64,000 bases of DNA from IMG/VR virus record IMGVR_UViG_3300046652_000008, positions 30,920 to 94,919 of that record; one strand, written 5' to 3'. A program made the translations under genes and the position numbers. This document shows positions 6,508 to 46,010 of this stretch, piece after piece (position 1 is the stretch's first letter; each line of letters opens with the position of its first letter). The notes under the pieces are model-generated. The model had not been told where the DNA came from. It worked only from the letters and a program-made list of their open reading frames with translations, and did no database searches. The stretch comes from a virus.

Positions 6508-7179
6508 TCACACCTTTTGCTTCCCTGTCTGCCACAAACCAATCGTGCCCACCCTCCCAATCTCAGCCAGCGAACAGGCATTCCCATTAAACATGGACTC
6601 CCGCTGGTCGTCTCTCGTGCTGTTAATGCTTATCTGTAATCCAGCCTCTCCATGGTATAGCCTGTTCTTCATTCGCATCCATGTATGCACAAACGTCTTT
6701 AACCACTCATTTCTCTTCGGCATCATCGTAGATACCACCGGATGTACGTTATATGTATCGTTCATGTGCGTGTGCAGCCACTTTCCTAAATCCAGCACAA
6801 CCGGATTCCATGTCGGCTCCCCCATTCTAGCCACATGCACGTTTAGCCGCCTTGTCTCTGTCACTTCTGGGTGCAGTCCCACAGCCGCCAATACCTGTCC
6901 GGTCAAATCATAGAACGTTGCATTCTTCCCAGGCCCTACCCTCGGCACATCGCAGAACCCGCACCCCATCGAACATCCATACTGGCTGCTAATTGTTACC
7001 ACCCACTTCTCGCTCAGCGGCATACACGCCTGATGCCTTACCGCTCTATGCTGGTTCAGGTTAATGCCCTTGCCATAGTCTCCCAGAGACAAGAACTCCA
7101 GCGAGCCCTTCTCGCCTTTTCCTATACAGATGTCTCCAGTAGGTACACTCAACCTGCGCGTTATCTCCATATGCGCCAT
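6508..7179 (-). CDS. RlmN/Cfr-like radical SAM protein, probably C-terminally truncated
   Basis: ISSQYGCSMGCGFC (CX3CX2C), RMGEP, LQISINST...R; 223 aa with no C-terminal catalytic-Cys segment. Confidence 0.75.
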   Translation of the reverse strand: MAHMEITRRLSVPTGDICIGKGEKGSLEFLSLGDYGKGINLNQHRAVRHQACMPLSEKWVVTISSQYGCSMGCGFCDVPRVGPGKNATFYDLTGQVLAAVGLHPEVTETRRLNVHVARMGEPTWNPVVLDLGKWLHTHMNDTYNVHPVVSTMMPKRNEWLKTFVHTWMRMKNRLYHGEAGLQISINSTRDDQRESMFNGNACSLAEIGRVGTIGLWQTGKQKV

Positions 7180-7554: not shown

Positions 7555-8368
7555 TTTCGCCTTCCTTTCGCCGTTCGCCTTTCCTTCACACCCATCATAA
7601 GATAGGACAGATATCTATGTAATGCGTTCGTATGGGGAACAAACGGCAAAGACGAAGAAAAAGCGATATCGCCTTCCCTTCTCCCTATGCTTCCCACCCT
7701 CCCGCTTTCGCCTGTGCTTCGCACTCACTAGTGCATTCATAGTAGTACTCTTGGGGGGCGAACAAAAGGCGAAGCGACAGTACGAGTACTATGTTTTACA
7801 TACTAATACGTTTCAGTATTTCACTTATGCTTGATTCTGTACGGTGAGCATACCTGCCTATGTGTATGATTCGACTATGGTTTCATTATTTTCCGCTTCT
7901 TTCGGTATGCAAACAGAACGCGATGAGGGCAGCCCATTCCAGGTATTAGGGTACAATAGGGTTGAATTCGAGTGTCAGCCTGGGGTATTAGCGTACAATA
8001 GAGAGAGAAGCAATAGTATGGCCTAAGGCTATTGGTATGAGTGACATGCGAAGCATAGCAGCTCGAAGTGAGTGCATGAGAACAAAGGGCGAAGGTCACA
8101 GGCTAGCATAAAGGTATTAGCATGGGGGTACTGCGAAGAGACGGAGAACACGAACAGACGACGAAACGAGCATAAGCTTGTGCACCTATATAAGTAGATA
8201 CAAGTGATGCAGCAGAGTGAGAGCGGGATTGACTCCAGACGCCTCGGTCTAATAGTTAGACAAGAGATAGGCACCCAGGCGTAATATACTTGGACAGGCA
8301 CGGCATGAGAAACTTGGAGCACCACGAACAAAAAGCGAACAGGGAAGATAGCCGAACAGATGGCGAAA
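7555..8368. repeat. Dispersed array of about 12 GAAC-N7-GAAN / NTTC-N7-NTTC boxes (LexA-box-like)
   Basis: + copies at 7637, 7654, 7760, 8080, 8135, 8152, 8326 (perfect GAAC-AAAAAGC-GAAC) and 8354; inverse copies at 7555, 7573, 7667 and 7706. Confidence 0.75.
7942..8003 (+). repeat. Direct repeat GGTATTAG(G/C)GTACAATAG, two copies, each containing a -10-like TACAAT
   Basis: Copies start at 7942 and 7984; partial GGTATTAGC at 8113. Confidence 0.6.
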
Positions 8369-8371
8369 ACC

Positions 8372-8417
8372 CGGTAACGCTTACCGCATGGTAAATCTTA
8401 CCCGGTAAGTATTCCCG
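8372..8417. promoter_or_regulatory. Three tandem GGTAA-N3-TTACC palindromes, putative enhancer (UAS)
   Basis: CGGTAAcgcTTACCG 8372-8386, GGTAAatcTTACC 8390-8402, CGGTAAgtaTTCCCG 8403-8417; 80-125 bp upstream of a -24/-12 promoter start. Confidence 0.75.
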
Positions 8418-8452
8418 AAGATAGTTATCTTGAAGGCATAGCGTATCAATAG

Positions 8453-8465
8453 AATCAACAGCTTA
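8453..8465 (+). promoter_or_regulatory. IHF binding site
   Basis: AATCAACAGCTTA is an exact match to WATCAANNNNTTR and lies between the UAS and the promoter. Confidence 0.75.
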
Positions 8466-8470
8466 GGGAG

Positions 8471-8486
8471 TGGCAACAGCATTGCT
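8471..8486 (+). promoter_or_regulatory. sigma54 (-24/-12) promoter
   Basis: TGGCAACAGCATTGCT fits TGGCAC-N5-TTGCW with one mismatch and exact GG-N10-GC spacing; predicted +1 about 8495-8498. Confidence 0.8.
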
Positions 8487-8497
8487 CTTATCATACC

Positions 8498-9200
8498 GTC
8501 CGACGAACTCACACGGACCCGCGAAACGACTGGACAGCCAGAAAAGCCAAGCGCGGATTGACAAAAGAATCAGACCGGACCCCAAACGCGATAGCAGGAT
8601 CTAGATTGGGTTTCATGGGAAGCCGAGAGAATCACCCGCAGACATCCCCGCCGTCAGCCACTCCGCAAAGAGACCAGCAATGGTTCAGGCAATAGGCATA
8701 GTGGATCAACAAGCCGAGTGAAGATCAGAGCCAGCCCACACCGCACGAGTAGGAACGAAATCCCCCGAGCGGCAATGAAATGACAGGGTTAAACGCAGGA
8801 TACCCTAGTGGTACAGTAAGCCGATACCCGAGATGCCAGCACGATGCAATAACAGCATCGAAACATCGCACGCCAGCAGCACAGGACTAAGCCCCTGCTA
8901 GCGTCCTACCAAGAGGATACATGGATACCACCGGAACGCATGGAAACGCGGAGAAACGATCCTAGACTCAGCACGACCCCACACAGGAGACGAGCAGATT
9001 CTAACCGAGACACAAACCGATCGAACAAACGAAAACGACTTGACGAGCCAACACGTTAACCATTAAAGAGCGGACAACGGCATACGGGTAAACTCCGAAT
9101 TGCACGCGCCTATCAATAATGCTAAATCGCAACGCGCCCAACGTGTTAGCCCGTCCAGTCTATTAGCTGCATTCAAACCGAGTACAGCTTATAGGCTGAT
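8498..9200 (+). ncRNA. Putative large structured RNA or leader of unknown class
   Basis: No ORF of 60 aa or more in any frame; T-poor; many hairpins and nested long-range helices; starts at the predicted sigma54 +1. Confidence 0.6.
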
Positions 9201-9214
9201 AAGGACAGCCCACC

Positions 9215-9496
9215 GTGAAGAACAAGAAACGTAACGCAACGCTTCAGGCCGTAGTAGATAAGGCCAACGAATTCATGAACGAATCCCCCGATAGCGACAG
9301 GCCAGCACGCAAGATGCTAGCTGTATTCGTTGACTCCCTGTTATTCGAGGCCCGATGCTACAACGGATATAATTATCTGTATTGGCTTGAGACGGGCTAT
9401 GATCAATGGGTTAAAGATGGAAGACCAGACTTCCTTGAGAAAGACCCGTATATCTACGGACCCACGGGAGACGATTCACGCGTTAGATTCTACTAG
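9215..9496 (+). CDS. hypothetical early protein
   Basis: GTG start with AAGGA RBS directly after a hairpin. Confidence 0.7.
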   Translation: MKNKKRNATLQAVVDKANEFMNESPDSDRPARKMLAVFVDSLLFEARCYNGYNYLYWLETGYDQWVKDGRPDFLEKDPYIYGPTGDDSRVRFY

Positions 9497-9504
9497 ACAC
9501 CATA

Positions 9505-9581
9505 GACGCCTAATGATTAAACCCGTTAGGCGTCCAGTCTATAGATAGCCTAGTATTAACGTATTAGACTATGCATAGGCT
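9505..9581 (+). other. Tandem intergenic stem-loops (RNA processing or stability site?)
   Basis: GACGCCTAATG/CGTTAGGCGTC and AGTCTAT...ATAGGCT; shares CGTCCAGTCTAT with 9152-9163. Confidence 0.6.
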
Positions 9582-9604
9582 ACAACGTCCAATAGGGAGA
9601 AAGT

Positions 9605-9835
9605 ATGTTTATCCGAATCAGTAAGAGAACCGCACGGAAGATGTTCACCGAAGGCAAGTCCTTCTATATCATCGCTCACAAGATGCGCCCCGGTTATCCT
9701 TTCAGTATGGGAATGACCGTCTATCCCACGGAATACACCGAAGGCCAGTCATTCGATTACATGCTGAACAATTGGAACTTCTACAATTCCAGTTGGGAGA
9801 CGGGATACTACCCCGCGTTCTATCTGGAACGGTGA
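9605..9835 (+). CDS. hypothetical early protein
   Basis: GGGAG RBS. Confidence 0.7.
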   Translation: MFIRISKRTARKMFTEGKSFYIIAHKMRPGYPFSMGMTVYPTEYTEGQSFDYMLNNWNFYNSSWETGYYPAFYLER

Positions 9836-9839
9836 CGCC

Positions 9840-10022
9840 ATGCAACCAGCACGATACAGACTCACCCAAGCATACGGAAAACACGTTACACTCATAGGTG
9901 TATACGCCCACTTCAAAGACGCACAGCGCGCAAAAGAGCAGCACTGCTCCGAATTCACAAACCAGGGATATGGACTCTACACCATAACCGAGACGACTAC
10001 GCCCGAACCACAGGAGAGATGA
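9840..10022 (+). CDS. hypothetical protein
   Basis: Fills the gap between two co-oriented genes. Confidence 0.55.
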   Translation: MQPARYRLTQAYGKHVTLIGVYAHFKDAQRAKEQHCSEFTNQGYGLYTITETTTPEPQER

Positions 10023-10025
10023 GAA

Positions 10026-10913
10026 ATGGACTTCAGCAGCTTGTTCAAAAAAGGGATAACCTTGATATCTGTCAAGACATCTCAAGTAATGGGAACCAGT
10101 AAAAAACTTTCAGACGCGGGCAAAACAGCCATTGCCGAGCGTAATGACATGGCCCCCGAACGCTTGAACGCCACGAAGGTTATCGCTAAGAGTGAGAATC
10201 TGAAGAAGCTAACCTCTGAGAAAACCGCATTCATGGCATGGATCACAGAACATTGTGTCCCGGCCACGGAATTCTTGCGGAGTGGCTGCTACTTTATTGA
10301 TCGTAGCCTACTCGAAGACTTAGAAAACCAGCACGCCCAAACACTTCAAAATTGCGACTCGCTGTTAGTCGCACTCAAAGAAGAATGGTCCAGTATCCGT
10401 GAAGCTTCGCGCCGTGAATTAGGTCATGAATGGTCTGAAGACCTGCTACCCGAGACGCCGGACGCCTTGATCGCTCAATTCGGCATCACCTATCAGGCTT
10501 TCGAGCTTAGCATTCCAGATGGCATGGACCCTGCAACCCACCAGCGAGAACTTGACAAGGCCAACGGAGCATTGAAAAGCGCCTACCGCGAAGTAGAGTT
10601 AACCTTGCGCGATGAGATGATCAGCGCAGGCAACCCCAACGGGTTACTGGTAGCGCTAAAGAAGCGCCTTGATTCATTCGGGCAGACCAAAGGAGACCGT
10701 TTCCGCGAAGCACTGCTAACCAACGTGCTTGACTGGTGCGCCCGAGTACCACAGCGCAACATCTCAGAGAATCCGCAAATTGCACAGCTTGCAGACCTAG
10801 TGTATGCCAGTGTGTCAAGCTGGAACGTTGACCGCTTCAGAGACGACGCGAAAGAACGCGAGCAAGCGAGTGAGAAGATAGCGGAATTTATCCGCGAATT
10901 CGACAGGGTGTAG
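10026..10913 (+). CDS. DUF3150-like protein
   Basis: 295-aa helical protein (TLISVK...KKL, GCYFI, LPETPDALIAQF) upstream of an AAA/vWA pair, the usual context of this family. Confidence 0.6.
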   Translation: MDFSSLFKKGITLISVKTSQVMGTSKKLSDAGKTAIAERNDMAPERLNATKVIAKSENLKKLTSEKTAFMAWITEHCVPATEFLRSGCYFIDRSLLEDLENQHAQTLQNCDSLLVALKEEWSSIREASRRELGHEWSEDLLPETPDALIAQFGITYQAFELSIPDGMDPATHQRELDKANGALKSAYREVELTLRDEMISAGNPNGLLVALKKRLDSFGQTKGDRFREALLTNVLDWCARVPQRNISENPQIAQLADLVYASVSSWNVDRFRDDAKEREQASEKIAEFIREFDRV

Positions 10914-41246: not shown

Positions 41247-44159
41247 TTGCACTCATATGATATGCCCACAGACTACCAGAAGTTTATTGCGCTCGCAATG
41301 TATTCGCGCTGGGACGATTCCAAAAAGCGCCGGGAAACTTGGGAAGAAACGGTAGAACGCTGGTATAACTTTTGGGTTAAGAGAATCAACAAGATCGCAG
41401 CAGAGACGCCGCTAGACGCCACGGCGACCAAAAACCTGCAAGATAAGCTAGTAGAAGCCAAAGACTACGTTTTACGCCAGGAGGTTATGCCTTCTATGCG
41501 GTCGCTAATGGCGGCTGGCAAGGCGCTGGAAACGCATTCCTTATCTGGTTTCAATTGTAGCTATATTTCTATAAATTCTCCAAAGTCCTTTGATGAATTA
41601 CTCTACTCTAGTATGTGCAGCGTCGGAGTTGGGTATAGCGTTGAATCTAAATACACAAGTCAACTGCCAGAAATTCCTACCCTTTACCCCACAGACACTA
41701 CAATCGTAGTTGCTGATAGTAAAATTGGTTGGGCGTCTTCGCTTAGAGAGTTGACCACTCTCTTATATGTTGGGAAAATACCAAAATGGGATCTCAGTAA
41801 GTTAAGGCCAGCAGGGGCAAGGCTCAAGACTATGGGTGGGAGATCTTCGGGAAGCGGGCCACTCAACGAAGTGTTTGAGTTTGTGGTGAAGACCTTTAAG
41901 AATGCACAGGGTCGAAAACTCAAGCCCATCGAGTGCCACGACATATGCTGTATTATTGGGCAAGCCGTAGTCGTGGGGGGGGTTAGACGTGCCGCGTTGC
42001 TGAGTATGTCAGACTTAGATGATGACGAAATGCAACACGCTAAACATGGCAGATGGTACGATGACTTTCCGTACCGTGGGTTGGCTAACAACTCGGCGGC
42101 GTACTACAAGCGCCCGAATGTCGCAGAATTTATGCATGAATGGACATCGCTGTACCGTTCAAAGTCTGGGGAGCGGGGAATAATCAATGTCGAAGGATTA
42201 CGAAAGACAGCGCCAGAACGCAGAGAAAAATCTAAACTGGCTGGCATGAATCCGTGCGTAGTCGGAGAAACTTTGCTGCTTACCGAGTTTGGGTATTTCA
42301 AAATTAAAGACCTAGTGGGGAAAGACGTGAATGTGTGGAATGGCACAAACTGGTCTTCGGTAACTCCGTTCTCTACCGGGACCAATGAAGTCTACGACGT
42401 TAAGTTTAGCGATGGGGCGGCTATGTCCGTAACCCCATACCACAGGTTTCCCGTGAAATCGGGATATTCCTCACCATGCCGGATGACAGAACTGATAGAT
42501 ATGAACATTGGCGATAAGTTAGAAAAGTTCCCAATGCCAGTTTGCGGAGACGTAACCCTAAGTGACGATGAATCTTACCGAAAGTCTGCGTATAGCCAAG
42601 GGTTTTACGCTGGAGATGGGAATGACGGATATGAGAATTCATGGCTATATGGAGAAAAGTATTACAAATGCCAGGATAGACTAGTTGGGCGTATTGGAAA
42701 ATACAATGAAGACTATGGAAGGGGTAACTGGAACCATGGCCCAATGTTTGACAAGCGGTACGTCCCCGTTAACGAGCCGATTAGTTATCAAATAGAATGG
42801 CTAGCTGGCCTATTGGACTCCGATGGGGTTATGACTTCAGACCTCCACGGGAACGGGTTGCAAGTTGTGTCTATCAATAATCAGTTTTTGCTAGACACCA
42901 GGCTGATGCTTTCCCGGATGGGCATAAGATCAAAGATAATCTTCGCGTGCTCAGAGGAAATGCGTCCCATGCCAGATGGGAAGGGCGGATCTAAACTATA
43001 CCTATGCCAAGCGGCCAATCGGCTATTGATTGGCAATGCTGAGTCGTTTTGCTTATGGGAGCTAGGCTTGAGGACTAGCAGGCTTGGGCTGTCGGGTAGA
43101 TCGCCACAGCGGAGCGCTGGACAATTTGTTAAGATCGCCTCTATCGAAAAGACAGGGAGAGCAGAGGAGACATTCTGCGTAACCGAAAAGGAATTCGGAC
43201 TGGTTACATTTAATGGAATAGTAACGGGAAATTGCGGTGAAGTGCTCCTTCGTGACCGAGAAACGTGCAACTTGTCTGCCGTGATCTGCCGCCCCACGGA
43301 TACAGCTATAGACATACTCGAAAAAGTAGAAATCGCGTCATTTATCGGAACACTCCAATCTACCCTCACTGACTTCAAATACCTGAGCAAGAAGTGGAAA
43401 GAGAATTGCGACGAGGAGCGGCTATTGGGAGTTTCTCTGTCTGGTATCATGGACAACCCACTACTCCATAACGTAAGTAATCTCAACCCGGATCTGCCAA
43501 CGCTACTTGAAACATTGAAGCGCGAAGCCGTAGAGACGAACGAGCACTACGCAGACATGCTGAAGATCAATCACTCAGCCGCCGTTACTTGCGTTAAGCC
43601 TGATGGGAATACGTCTCAACTCGTGGACTCATCCCCAGGTATCCATCCACGGTTCTCTAAGTATTATATGCGCACCGTTAGGCGCGACAAGAAAGACCCA
43701 CTCTCCATCCTGCTAAAACAGCAAGGAGTCTACCACGAAGACGATGTATCACGTCCAAAAGATACGGATGTACTATACTTCCCAGTTAAGTCTCCAGAAG
43801 GCAGCGTATTCCGTAAAGACGTTACAGCCATCCAACAATTAGACTTGTGGCTCATCTACAAGCAGCATTGGTGCGAGCATAACCCGTCCACGACGATCTA
43901 CGTCCGTGAAGACGAATGGATGGAAGTAGGAGCATGGGTCTACCGCAACTGGGACTACGTTGGCGGCTTGTCATTCCTGCCCTACTCAGACCACATCTAC
44001 AAGCAAGCGCCCTACCAAGAGATCAGCAAGGAAGAGTACGACGCGGCGGTAGCGGCCTTCCCTAAAATCGACTTTTCTAAGCTCTCAGATGTTGAGCTAG
44101 ACGACGGAACCACGGGCTCAAAAGAGCTTGCTTGCTCTGGCGGCATGTGCGAACTATAG
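41247..44159 (+). CDS. nrdJ: class II (B12-dependent) ribonucleotide reductase with intein
   Basis: YSRW...RRETWEETV, FNCSY, VGGVRRAA, NP[intein]CGE, TCVKPDGN, C-terminal LACSGGMCEL; no nrdB nearby. Confidence 0.92.
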   Translation: MHSYDMPTDYQKFIALAMYSRWDDSKKRRETWEETVERWYNFWVKRINKIAAETPLDATATKNLQDKLVEAKDYVLRQEVMPSMRSLMAAGKALETHSLSGFNCSYISINSPKSFDELLYSSMCSVGVGYSVESKYTSQLPEIPTLYPTDTTIVVADSKIGWASSLRELTTLLYVGKIPKWDLSKLRPAGARLKTMGGRSSGSGPLNEVFEFVVKTFKNAQGRKLKPIECHDICCIIGQAVVVGGVRRAALLSMSDLDDDEMQHAKHGRWYDDFPYRGLANNSAAYYKRPNVAEFMHEWTSLYRSKSGERGIINVEGLRKTAPERREKSKLAGMNPCVVGETLLLTEFGYFKIKDLVGKDVNVWNGTNWSSVTPFSTGTNEVYDVKFSDGAAMSVTPYHRFPVKSGYSSPCRMTELIDMNIGDKLEKFPMPVCGDVTLSDDESYRKSAYSQGFYAGDGNDGYENSWLYGEKYYKCQDRLVGRIGKYNEDYGRGNWNHGPMFDKRYVPVNEPISYQIEWLAGLLDSDGVMTSDLHGNGLQVVSINNQFLLDTRLMLSRMGIRSKIIFACSEEMRPMPDGKGGSKLYLCQAANRLLIGNAESFCLWELGLRTSRLGLSGRSPQRSAGQFVKIASIEKTGRAEETFCVTEKEFGLVTFNGIVTGNCGEVLLRDRETCNLSAVICRPTDTAIDILEKVEIASFIGTLQSTLTDFKYLSKKWKENCDEERLLGVSLSGIMDNPLLHNVSNLNPDLPTLLETLKREAVETNEHYADMLKINHSAAVTCVKPDGNTSQLVDSSPGIHPRFSKYYMRTVRRDKKDPLSILLKQQGVYHEDDVSRPKDTDVLYFPVKSPEGSVFRKDVTAIQQLDLWLIYKQHWCEHNPSTTIYVREDEWMEVGAWVYRNWDYVGGLSFLPYSDHIYKQAPYQEISKEEYDAAVAAFPKIDFSKLSDVELDDGTTGSKELACSGGMCEL
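42255..43232 (+). mobile_element. Intein with LAGLIDADG homing endonuclease (326 aa)
   Basis: Begins CVVGETLLLT, block B TPYHRF, LAGLLDSDG, ends FNGIVTGN before Cys+1. Confidence 0.92.
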
Positions 44160-44801: not shown

Positions 44802-46010
44802 ATGGTGCGCGGATTCAAATATCGAATATACCCAACCAAGGGCCAGAAGGAGTCGCTGGCTAAGGTGTTTGGTTGCTGCCGCTATGTCTATAATTGGGCA
44901 CTTGGCATGAGAACCAAGGCGTGGAAAGAGCGCGGTGAGCGTGTTAACTATTACCAGACAAATAAGGCCCTTACACAGTTAAGGCATTCCCCAGAAACAG
45001 CATGGCTATCTGGATCAAGCGCAGTCGCAGAACAAATGGCACTGATGTCCCTTCAGGATTCATTTTCTAATTTCTGGGACAAGAATTCAAATTATCCAAA
45101 ATTCAAGGAAAAGAGAAACAAGCAGTCCGCTAAATTCGTAGGAAATGGGTTTTCACTGCATTCATGCCGACTTATGATTGTCAAGGTTGGCGTGCTGAAA
45201 GTGCGGTGGTCTGGTAGATTATTGAATGAACCAACCAGCGTTACCATATCTAAGACATCCTCTGGGAAGTATTATGCGTCGTTTACGGTAGACGAACCGT
45301 TGCGAGAGATGCCAGCCGCTACAAAGAGCATCGGGATTGACGTTGGGATTGAGACGTTTGCGACGACCAATGAGGGCTCTAAGTACACTGCTCCGCGTCC
45401 ATTACGCAAGAAGATGGCGCAACTGAAGAGAGCGCAGAAGTCGTTGAGCCGAAAGAAGAAAGGCTCAAAGAACCGAGAGAAGCAGAGAATCCGCGTAGCG
45501 ATTATTCACGAGAAGATAGCAAACATACGAAAGGACTTCATCCACAAGTTAACCACTAAGCTGGTACGTGAAAACCAAACGATTGTGACTGAAGACTTGA
45601 ACGTGCGCGACATGATGCAGAATCACAAACTAGCCGGATCTATCGGGGATCAGGGCTGGGGAGAATTCTTCCGGCAACTAGACTATAAATGTAGGTGGTA
45701 CGGCAGAGATTACGTCAAGATTGACAGGTTCTACCCATCGTCCAAGATGTGCTCAAACTGTAGCCACATTGTAGAACGACTGCCGCTAGACAAGCGAACA
45801 TGGAAGTGTGAAAAGTGCGGAACTGTCCACGACCGCGACGTTAACGCGGCGAAGAACATTTTAGCGGCGGGGTACGCCGTTTTAGCCTGTGGAGATGGTG
45901 TAAGACCCAAACGCTCGAAAGAACGCAAGGGCAACTGTCGGCGAAGCAGGAACGCGAACTTTACTAATATTGGCTCTAGTGATAGAATAGTATTAGTGGA
46001 AGAGAATTGA
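44802..46010 (+). CDS. tnpB: IS200/IS605-family RNA-guided endonuclease TnpB
   Basis: FKYRIYPT HTH, GIDVG, TEDLN, CSNC/CEKC, HDRDVNAAKNI; D-E-D triad intact. Confidence 0.95.
   Translation: MVRGFKYRIYPTKGQKESLAKVFGCCRYVYNWALGMRTKAWKERGERVNYYQTNKALTQLRHSPETAWLSGSSAVAEQMALMSLQDSFSNFWDKNSNYPKFKEKRNKQSAKFVGNGFSLHSCRLMIVKVGVLKVRWSGRLLNEPTSVTISKTSSGKYYASFTVDEPLREMPAATKSIGIDVGIETFATTNEGSKYTAPRPLRKKMAQLKRAQKSLSRKKKGSKNREKQRIRVAIIHEKIANIRKDFIHKLTTKLVRENQTIVTEDLNVRDMMQNHKLAGSIGDQGWGEFFRQLDYKCRWYGRDYVKIDRFYPSSKMCSNCSHIVERLPLDKRTWKCEKCGTVHDRDVNAAKNILAAGYAVLACGDGVRPKRSKERKGNCRRSRNANFTNIGSSDRIVLVEEN
45862..45952 (+). ncRNA. TnpB omega/reRNA scaffold (5' part) overlapping the tnpB 3' end
   Basis: GCGGCGGGGTACGCCGT...GCCTGTGGAGA...GTAAGACC...GAAGCAGGAA, as in IS605-group right ends; terminal hairpin not seen. 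Confidence 0.6.

Follow-up and report, generated by a model that had tools for sequence, protein, structure and literature searches.

Promoters that depend on the sigma-54 factor remain silent until an ATPase, itself activated by a signal, opens them. Classical cases in which IHF assists the activator are glnAp2 with NtrC, nifH with NifA and Pu with XylR, and in glnAp2 the strong NtrC sites lie about 32 bp apart. In the norV promoter of Escherichia coli the dyad centres are found near -132, -112 and -87. This promoter, norVW, combines three NorR sites with IHF and sigma-54 (PMC2831303; PMC1274295); reports of NorR are confined to the beta- and gamma-proteobacteria (PMC1274295). Among phages, a sigma-54-like promoter has been described for Pseudomonas phage YuA (Ceyssens et al. 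2008, as cited in bioRxiv 10.1101/2023.10.13.562163).

The locus considered here belongs to an uncultured phage, the sequence of which is present in several peat metagenomes. The window, i.e., the whole stretch of 64 kb that was analysed, comprises bases 30920-94919 of a linear IMG/VR virus record of 94.9 kb. The record is estimated to be 76% complete, and about a quarter of the phage genome may be missing from the contig. Left of position ~7450 of the window there is a block of minus-strand genes, and from ~9200 to 48300 there is a block of plus-strand genes for an AAA+ ATPase, a ParB-like protein, Erf, exonucleases, an SF2 helicase, a primase, a DnaB-like helicase, RNA ligases and a ribonucleotide reductase. 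The plus-strand block is the early and replication block of the phage. Between the leftward and the rightward genes, about 1.7 kb is without a credible ORF, and in this region gene blocks and strand composition both diverge. Rfam and tRNA scans of the 64-kb window gave no matches. The ORF-free region houses an intergenic module, pointing toward the replication block on the plus strand, which is given below together with its immediate surroundings; positions with a minus sign are relative to the predicted transcription start.

8354-8368, plus strand: last GAAC-N7-GAA (LexA-box-like) repeat of an upstream array, ending 3 nt before the first dyad
8372-8386, no strand: putative activator site 1, a perfect 15-bp dyad CGGTAA-CGC-TTACCG with core 8373-8385, centre ~-118
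8390-8402, no strand: putative activator site 2, a perfect GGTAA-ATC-TTACC, centre ~-101, 17 bp from site 1
8403-8417, no strand: putative activator site 3, an imperfect dyad CGGTAA-GTA-TTCCCG with core 8404-8416, centre ~-87
8453-8465, plus strand: candidate IHF site AATCAACAGCTTA, an exact match to the consensus WATCAANNNNTTR, -44 to -32
8471-8486, plus strand: sigma-54 -24/-12 element TGGCAACAGCATTGCT = TGGCAA-CAGCA-TTGCT, with GG at 8472-8473 and GC at 8484-8485
8495-8498 (~8497), plus strand: predicted transcription start, placed at the usual distance of ~12 nt past the -12 GC
8500-9099 (600 nt), plus strand: ORF-free, T-poor stretch (11.5% T), the first to be transcribed if the promoter works
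9215-9496, plus strand: first plausible ORF downstream, 93 aa, GTG start, AAGGA 9 nt upstream

Most of this layout had been proposed in the first-pass annotation, and in most respects it stands. A pattern search places the IHF consensus, claimed to be exact, at 8453-8465, and reads TGGCA-N6-TTGC at 8471-8485, where an element of the form GG-N10-GC had been claimed. With +1 at ~8497 the dyad centres and the IHF site fall at the positions given for them, and the last LexA-like box (8354-8368) does end 3 bp ahead of the first palindrome when the extended dyad is counted from 8372. The claim of three GGTAA-N3-TTACC palindromes needs correction, in that two are perfect (8373-8385 and 8390-8402), while the third has one mismatch (TTCCC for TTACC). 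Its centre is separated from that of site 2 by 14 bp and from that of site 1 by 31 bp; with successive spacings of 17 and 14 bp, helical phasing holds for sites 1 and 3 alone. The stretch 8471-8485 is the sole exact TGGCA-N6-TTGC in the window, with its GG and GC exactly 10 nt apart.

How improbable the arrangement is by chance depends on which of its parts are considered. When one mismatch is tolerated, GGTAA-N3-TTACC occurs 6 times in 64 kb, versus 1.44 expected, and 3 of these occurrences fall within 44 bp at 8373-8416, a dyad cluster that pattern search finds nowhere else in the window. The IHF consensus occurs twice in the window, versus 2.44 expected, i.e., at the chance rate. Simulated first-order Markov sequence (20 Mb, composition of the window) yields, per 64 kb, 0.016 same-arm 5-3-5 palindrome pairs within 40 nt, 0.75 exact sigma-54 cores and 2.35 IHF consensus sites, so that the sigma-54 core by itself is unremarkable. 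That a core should fall among the ~140 admissible positions around the sole dyad cluster, and in the correct orientation, has p ~8e-4, and an IHF consensus inside the 55-nt gap contributes a further factor of ~2e-3. For a dyad pair with a correctly placed core the expectation is ~1e-5 per window, and with IHF in the gap it is ~3e-8.

The same enhancer-promoter pattern was sought in bacteria as two exact dyads 1-25 nt apart, followed by a gap of 45-75 nt and TGGCA-N7-TGC, which allows dyad spacings of 14-38 bp. The search covered one genome per species for 185,579 prokaryote species and, as a second set, JGI metagenome contigs. It returned 36 loci, 7 from the genomes and 29 from the metagenomes. 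Five of the genome loci are from MAGs labelled Nitrospira, one is from a Poribacteria MAG and one from a Roseburia MAG; none of the seven found in the 185,579-species scan is from Acidobacteriota. The full TTGC is present in each of the 34 distinct matched stretches, though the pattern demanded only TGC. At five of the seven genome loci the module directly adjoins a gene with the Pfam domains Sigma54_activat and HTH_8 or HTH_50, and one of these loci also adjoins rpoN. From this proximity to genes of sigma-54 activators it follows that the palindrome constitutes a true class of enhancer, which in bacteria recurs as tandem GGTAA-N3-TTACC ahead of -24/-12 elements.

To see how the module is embedded, consider the loci individually. 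Three Nitrospira loci have, in order, a histidine kinase with sCache_4, a regulator of the type REC-Sigma54_activat-HTH_8, the module, and a single-domain response regulator, and in a fourth the module stands ahead of a REC-Sigma54_activat-HTH_8 regulator. The Roseburia locus has rpoN and an activator of the type HPr-PAS-AAA+-HTH_50, then the module and then a Dak2 gene, and the Poribacteria locus has three dyads ahead of genes for multihaem cytochromes. In 12 of the metagenome loci a common C-terminal coding end of an activator lies just upstream of the module. Five of the genomes have no more than one or two occurrences of tandem dyads each, nearly always at such promoters. None of the activator-linked regulators reaches an equivalog cut-off of NCBIfam, which leaves them as uncharacterised NtrC-family members.

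Some of these loci deserve to be recorded in their own right. The cassette of the Nitrospira-labelled MAGs (L074, L076, L077, L072, and 12 metagenome loci, e.g., L081, L086, L097 and L106) has two AGGTAAAnTTTACCT dyads, and what is conserved around them is the sCache_4 histidine kinase, the NtrC-type regulator, the dyads, the sigma-54 promoter and the single-domain response regulator. The same AGGTAAAnTTTACCT dyads stand at other promoters, with an HtrA-like protease among the upstream genes and an OmpL-like porin nearby, and from their presence at those promoters follows an unnamed regulon in the Nitrospira-labelled MAGs. On a soil contig of 59% GC (L101:853-1458) a dyad pair and a sigma-54 promoter are flanked on one side by the gene of a type II/IV secretion (type IV pilus) ATPase and on the other by a pilin-like gene, whose product of 136 aa combines a short leader with a hydrophobic helix at the N-terminus. 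On metagenome contig L091 (5240-5290, 5653-5771) three direct repeats of the GACATGACC type precede a Rep-like ORF, which itself contains an 18-bp perfect inverted repeat of the same dyads and a sigma-54 core; this is the only composite match inside a coding region, and it may be a coincidence.

The geometry of the bacterial promoters differs from that of the phage. Their dyads are spaced by 19-23 bp in all 34 distinct stretches, as against 17 and 14 bp in the phage. In three promoters of the class 15 nt separate the end of the IHF consensus from TGGCA, as against 5 nt in the phage module, a difference of one helical turn. The distance from the centre of the proximal dyad to the GG is 62 bp in the phage and 53-83 bp in the bacteria, an agreement that weighs little because the search gap of 45-75 nt itself confines the range to about 53-83 bp.

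The proteins on which such a promoter depends are not supplied by the phage contig. Over its 94.9 kb there is no bacterial enhancer-binding protein (bEBP), no GAFTGA motif, no HTH_8 domain, and no sigma-54, sigma-70-family or HU/IHF protein. The first-pass annotation had noted that the window encodes no GAFTGA-type activator; this is confirmed, and extends to bEBPs on the rest of the 94.9-kb contig, which represents ~76% of the complete genome. From the lack of its own activator, sigma-54 and IHF it follows that the promoter, if it works, runs on host factors. One match to PF00158 on the contig was considered as an activator and rejected, being a ClpB-like AAA_2 ATPase that lacks GAFTGA. A second exact sigma-54 core, TGGCATTCCATTTGC, lies on the plus strand at G000:23483-23497 (L110:2484-2498), 7.4 kb before the window start, in an ORF-poor stretch, where no dyads precede it and where it is directed against a minus-strand block of tRNA and ncRNA genes; it is probably due to chance. 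The module of dyads, IHF site and core is thus present in a single copy on the phage contig, and because the sole other core is without dyads, there is no phage-wide sigma-54 programme.

What lies downstream of the module is unusual in composition. The T frequency falls from 23% over 8350-8499 to 11.5% over 8500-9099, with a maximum-likelihood change-point at 8495-8502, and in several 50-nt bins of 8500-9099 C exceeds G. Some functional boundary coincides with the predicted +1 at 8495-8502. There is no ORF of at least 45 aa within 8500-9099, and RNA from 8496-9214 is only a little more stably folded than its shuffled versions (z = -2.3, 20 shuffles). For the U-poor RNA that would be read from 8500-9099, the roles of leader, regulatory RNA and replication primer are all conceivable. 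The first ORF, at 9215-9496, begins 718 nt from the promoter and is followed by small ORFs, the first well-supported gene being at 9605, and then by the replication and recombination block.

Close to the rightward block the module is the one promoter that can be recognised, and other candidates flank it. Two 18-bp repeats, GGTATTAG[G/C]GTACAATAG, with a TACAAT hexamer lie at 7942-7961 and 7984-8003, 42 bp apart; a motif related to these TACAAT repeats is found at 8100-8124 and 9547-9567, the latter copy just before the gene at 9605, and of the 14 copies of GTATTAG in the genome, 5 fall within 7809-9561. The TACAAT-bearing repeats and related motifs may be other rightward promoters. Since TACAAT repeats (7942-8003) and the related motif (9547-9567) flank the module, sigma-54 may be one input among several, or it may mainly drive the ORF-free, U-poor RNA. 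In the first-pass annotation the module had been taken to head the early operon as its promoter, and this can be accepted only in part: the bacterial class, the lack of a phage activator and the break in T content speak for a sigma-54 promoter, but its position at the head of the operon is weakened by the 718 nt that separate it from the first ORF and by the motifs at 7942-8003 and 9547-9567. The same annotation took early transcription to be gated by a host activator, possibly combined with the SOS state; for the latter the sole indication is the adjacency of the GAAC-N7-GAA boxes, and for early transcription as a whole such gating is conjectural.

Relatives of the region are scarce. A blastn search with 7600-10100 against phage records gave no match, an alignment-based scan of metagenome contigs for relatives of the region gave none, and a search of viral contigs with the proteins of 295, 424 and 592 aa likewise gave none. 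For the 295-aa protein there are two homologues with 62% identity, whose contigs, 1.9 and 2.4 kb in length, are too short to extend to the promoter. Contigs from four other peat runs are identical to the phage where they overlap with it, and none of the four spans 8343-8596; among the sequencing runs listed for the stretch there is none of RNA. In other viruses the dyads are found in a different setting: 40 IMG/VR contigs (L032-L071) have tandem GGTAA-N3-TTACC without a nearby sigma-54 core, mostly as regular arrays with a period of 20-24 bp and often with GGTAAAAATTACC. Several of the arrays adjoin AT-rich DNA in the manner of iterons, and eight viral contigs have a dyad pair with 14-bp spacing beside a conserved hairpin. 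Because these 40 contigs are without a sigma-54 core, phages must also use GGTAA-N3-TTACC for other proteins. No protein is common to the surroundings of the arrays on the dyad-bearing viral contigs, and the composite of dyads and core is present in no other viral contig.

Three genes of this genome call for separate mention. The ribonucleotide reductase of 970 aa (41247-44159, plus strand) matches its family in two separate stretches and may carry an insertion, and just after it stands a transposase gene (phrog_506, E = 2e-133) at 44802-46010 on the plus strand. A phrog_24834 gene at 6508-7179 on the minus strand has 39-77% identity to genes on 28 otherwise unrelated viral contigs, which show no synteny and have no DNA in common with the phage beyond the gene; it appears, from this distribution, to behave like a mobile cassette.

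As to the host, among cultured phages it is those of Tunturiibacter (Acidobacteriota) that best match the SF2 helicase (32% identity) and a repair exonuclease (42%), and one of the three proteins compared, the DnaB-like helicase, departs from this pattern. Acidobacteriota is the likely host phylum. GAAC-N7-GAA, the repeat next to the module, is of a LexA-box type that occurs in Alphaproteobacteria and in Acidobacterium, and both of these groups have sigma-54. Tunturiibacter phage Tunturi_3, which is the nearest cultured relative for two of the three proteins, has no exact sigma-54 core.

Taken together, the observations make it reasonably probable that the module is a working, enhancer-dependent sigma-54 promoter, fired by an activator of the host. 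The promoter would operate as follows. Dimers of a host enhancer-binding protein of the NtrC family would bind the three dyads at -118, -101 and -87, and a host protein of IHF type would bend the DNA at -44 to -32. By looping, the activator would come into contact with the closed complex of host sigma-54 RNA polymerase on TGGCAA-N5-TTGCT, and its ATPase would open that complex. Transcription would proceed rightward from ~8497, through the 600-nt U-poor and ORF-free leader to the small early genes and further to the replication and recombination block. The binding, the looping, the start site and the rpoN dependence are all predicted from the DNA, while the nature of the activator and its signal, and the share of the early region that would depend on this promoter, are conjecture.

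This reading has to be weighed against the case in which the dyads are operators or other sites for a different protein, either a phage regulator encoded in the small ORFs or a host repressor, with the core and the IHF site lying next to them by coincidence in a control region crowded with sites. The 40 viral contigs that have tandem dyads and no sigma-54 core, together with the eight that have 14-bp spacing, speak for such a case, as do the phage spacings of 17 and 14 bp, which fall outside the 19-23 bp of all bEBP-linked examples, and the fact that an exact core is expected 0.75 times per 64 kb regardless of any function. The coincidence would, however, have to put the sole core 54-68 nt from the sole dyad cluster in the right orientation (p ~8e-4) and to add the IHF site (~2e-3). 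A repressor, as in a switch of the CI/Cro type, would moreover find no sigma-70-like promoter to occlude over the dyads at 8372-8417. No HTH family was detected in the flanking ORFs, and these have no Pfam or PHROG function, which is compatible also with a novel repressor; the lack of a common protein near the viral arrays and the T-content break at the predicted +1 speak against the alternative as well. We regard this alternative as unlikely.

Another possibility is that the module is part of a replication origin, where a promoter, of sigma-54 or another type, yields a U-poor transcript rich in purines and C that stays hybridised to the template and primes DNA synthesis, and where the dyads and GAAC-N7-GAA repeats are initiator or iteron sites. 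Origins primed by transcription are known from T4, T7 and ColE1. Divergence of gene blocks and strand composition at the region would be natural for an origin, as would ~1.7 kb of ORF-free DNA with 11.5% T over 8500-9099, and arrays of the same dyad abut AT-rich DNA in other viral contigs in an iteron-like manner. Yet the phage has only three close-packed dyads at 17 and 14 bp rather than at least four regular repeats at 20-24 bp, no AT-rich unwinding element follows them, and no initiator gene has been identified. An origin is in any case compatible with a sigma-54 promoter and would change only the purpose of its transcript; we regard the origin reading as quite improbable. Least to be expected is a module that is captured host regulatory DNA, a moron-like relic with no function in the phage. 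For such a relic speak the single copy, the lack of a counterpart in other viral contigs and the degenerate site 3, but the -24/-12 and IHF elements are perfect to consensus, the module sits in the main control region and not beside a cargo gene, and the searches turned up no bacterial DNA that resembles the region. We give this origin of the module a very small chance.

If the sigma-54 promoter is real, then, being ahead of the replication block and without an activator of its own on the contig, it makes part of the phage programme dependent on the signalling state of the host. Such a promoter would be a simple means for a virus to sense host physiology, of relevance for the dynamics of infection in peat soils with slow-growing, uncultured hosts. 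One may speculate further, at a low level of confidence, that LexA-type boxes, responding to DNA damage, and the directly abutting enhancer of a host activator, of the two-component or bEBP type and responding to an environmental or envelope signal, jointly decide the output of sigma-54, and that this output is the 600-nt U-poor RNA, leading into the replication genes or itself priming or regulating replication. Were this true, the virus would rely on sigma-54 logic borrowed from its host to read that host's physiology, and would contribute no regulator. The survey, for its part, delineates an enhancer class that had no name before, tandem GGTAA-N3-TTACC, which is linked to regulators of the NtrC family in several phyla; with candidate host genomes to search, this class could help to identify both the host of the phage and the signal.

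Among the known systems, the closest match in layout is norVW, which resembles the phage in placing three dyads in tandem ahead of an IHF site and a -24/-12 element. Of the phage sites, the first two agree with the degenerate NorR core GT-N7-AC, and the third has GT-N7-CC. The E. coli NorR sites, however, are GTCA-N3-TGAC at 20 and 25 bp, whereas those of the phage are GTAA-N3-TTAC at 17 and 14 bp. Membership in the NorR regulon was considered, as the dyad fits GGT-N7-ACC, and was rejected on the inner consensus, the spacing and the taxonomic range of NorR. norVW may thus serve as an architectural analogue, and the likeness is no sign of a role for NorR or NO. The regulon of the Nitrospira-labelled MAGs has the same tandem half-sites as the phage, at 53-83 bp from TGGCA-N6-TTGC, and at some of its promoters an IHF consensus in helical phase with that of the phage. 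It differs in having AGGTAAA-N-TTTACCT, 20-22 bp spacing, two sites and an activator encoded next door, whereas the phage has flanks of the CGGTAA-N3-TTACCG type, tighter spacing, three sites and no activator gene.

With the classical IHF-assisted promoters the phage module shares the order of enhancer, bend and -24/-12 element and distances of about 80-140 bp, and the 31 bp between sites 1 and 3 resemble the distance between the strong sites of glnAp2 (~32 bp). Those promoters are chromosomal or plasmid-borne and have known activators, while the present one is on a phage genome. That a phage has a sigma-54 promoter is not without published precedent, namely YuA, which according to the account in the citing source is likewise a tailed phage with host sigma-54 at at least one promoter. 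In the passage of that source on YuA neither enhancer nor IHF architecture is mentioned, whereas the present phage has the complete layout, as predicted from the sequence. What is distinct here is that the module is single, lies in the central control region, abuts an array of LexA boxes and opens onto a U-poor non-coding stretch.
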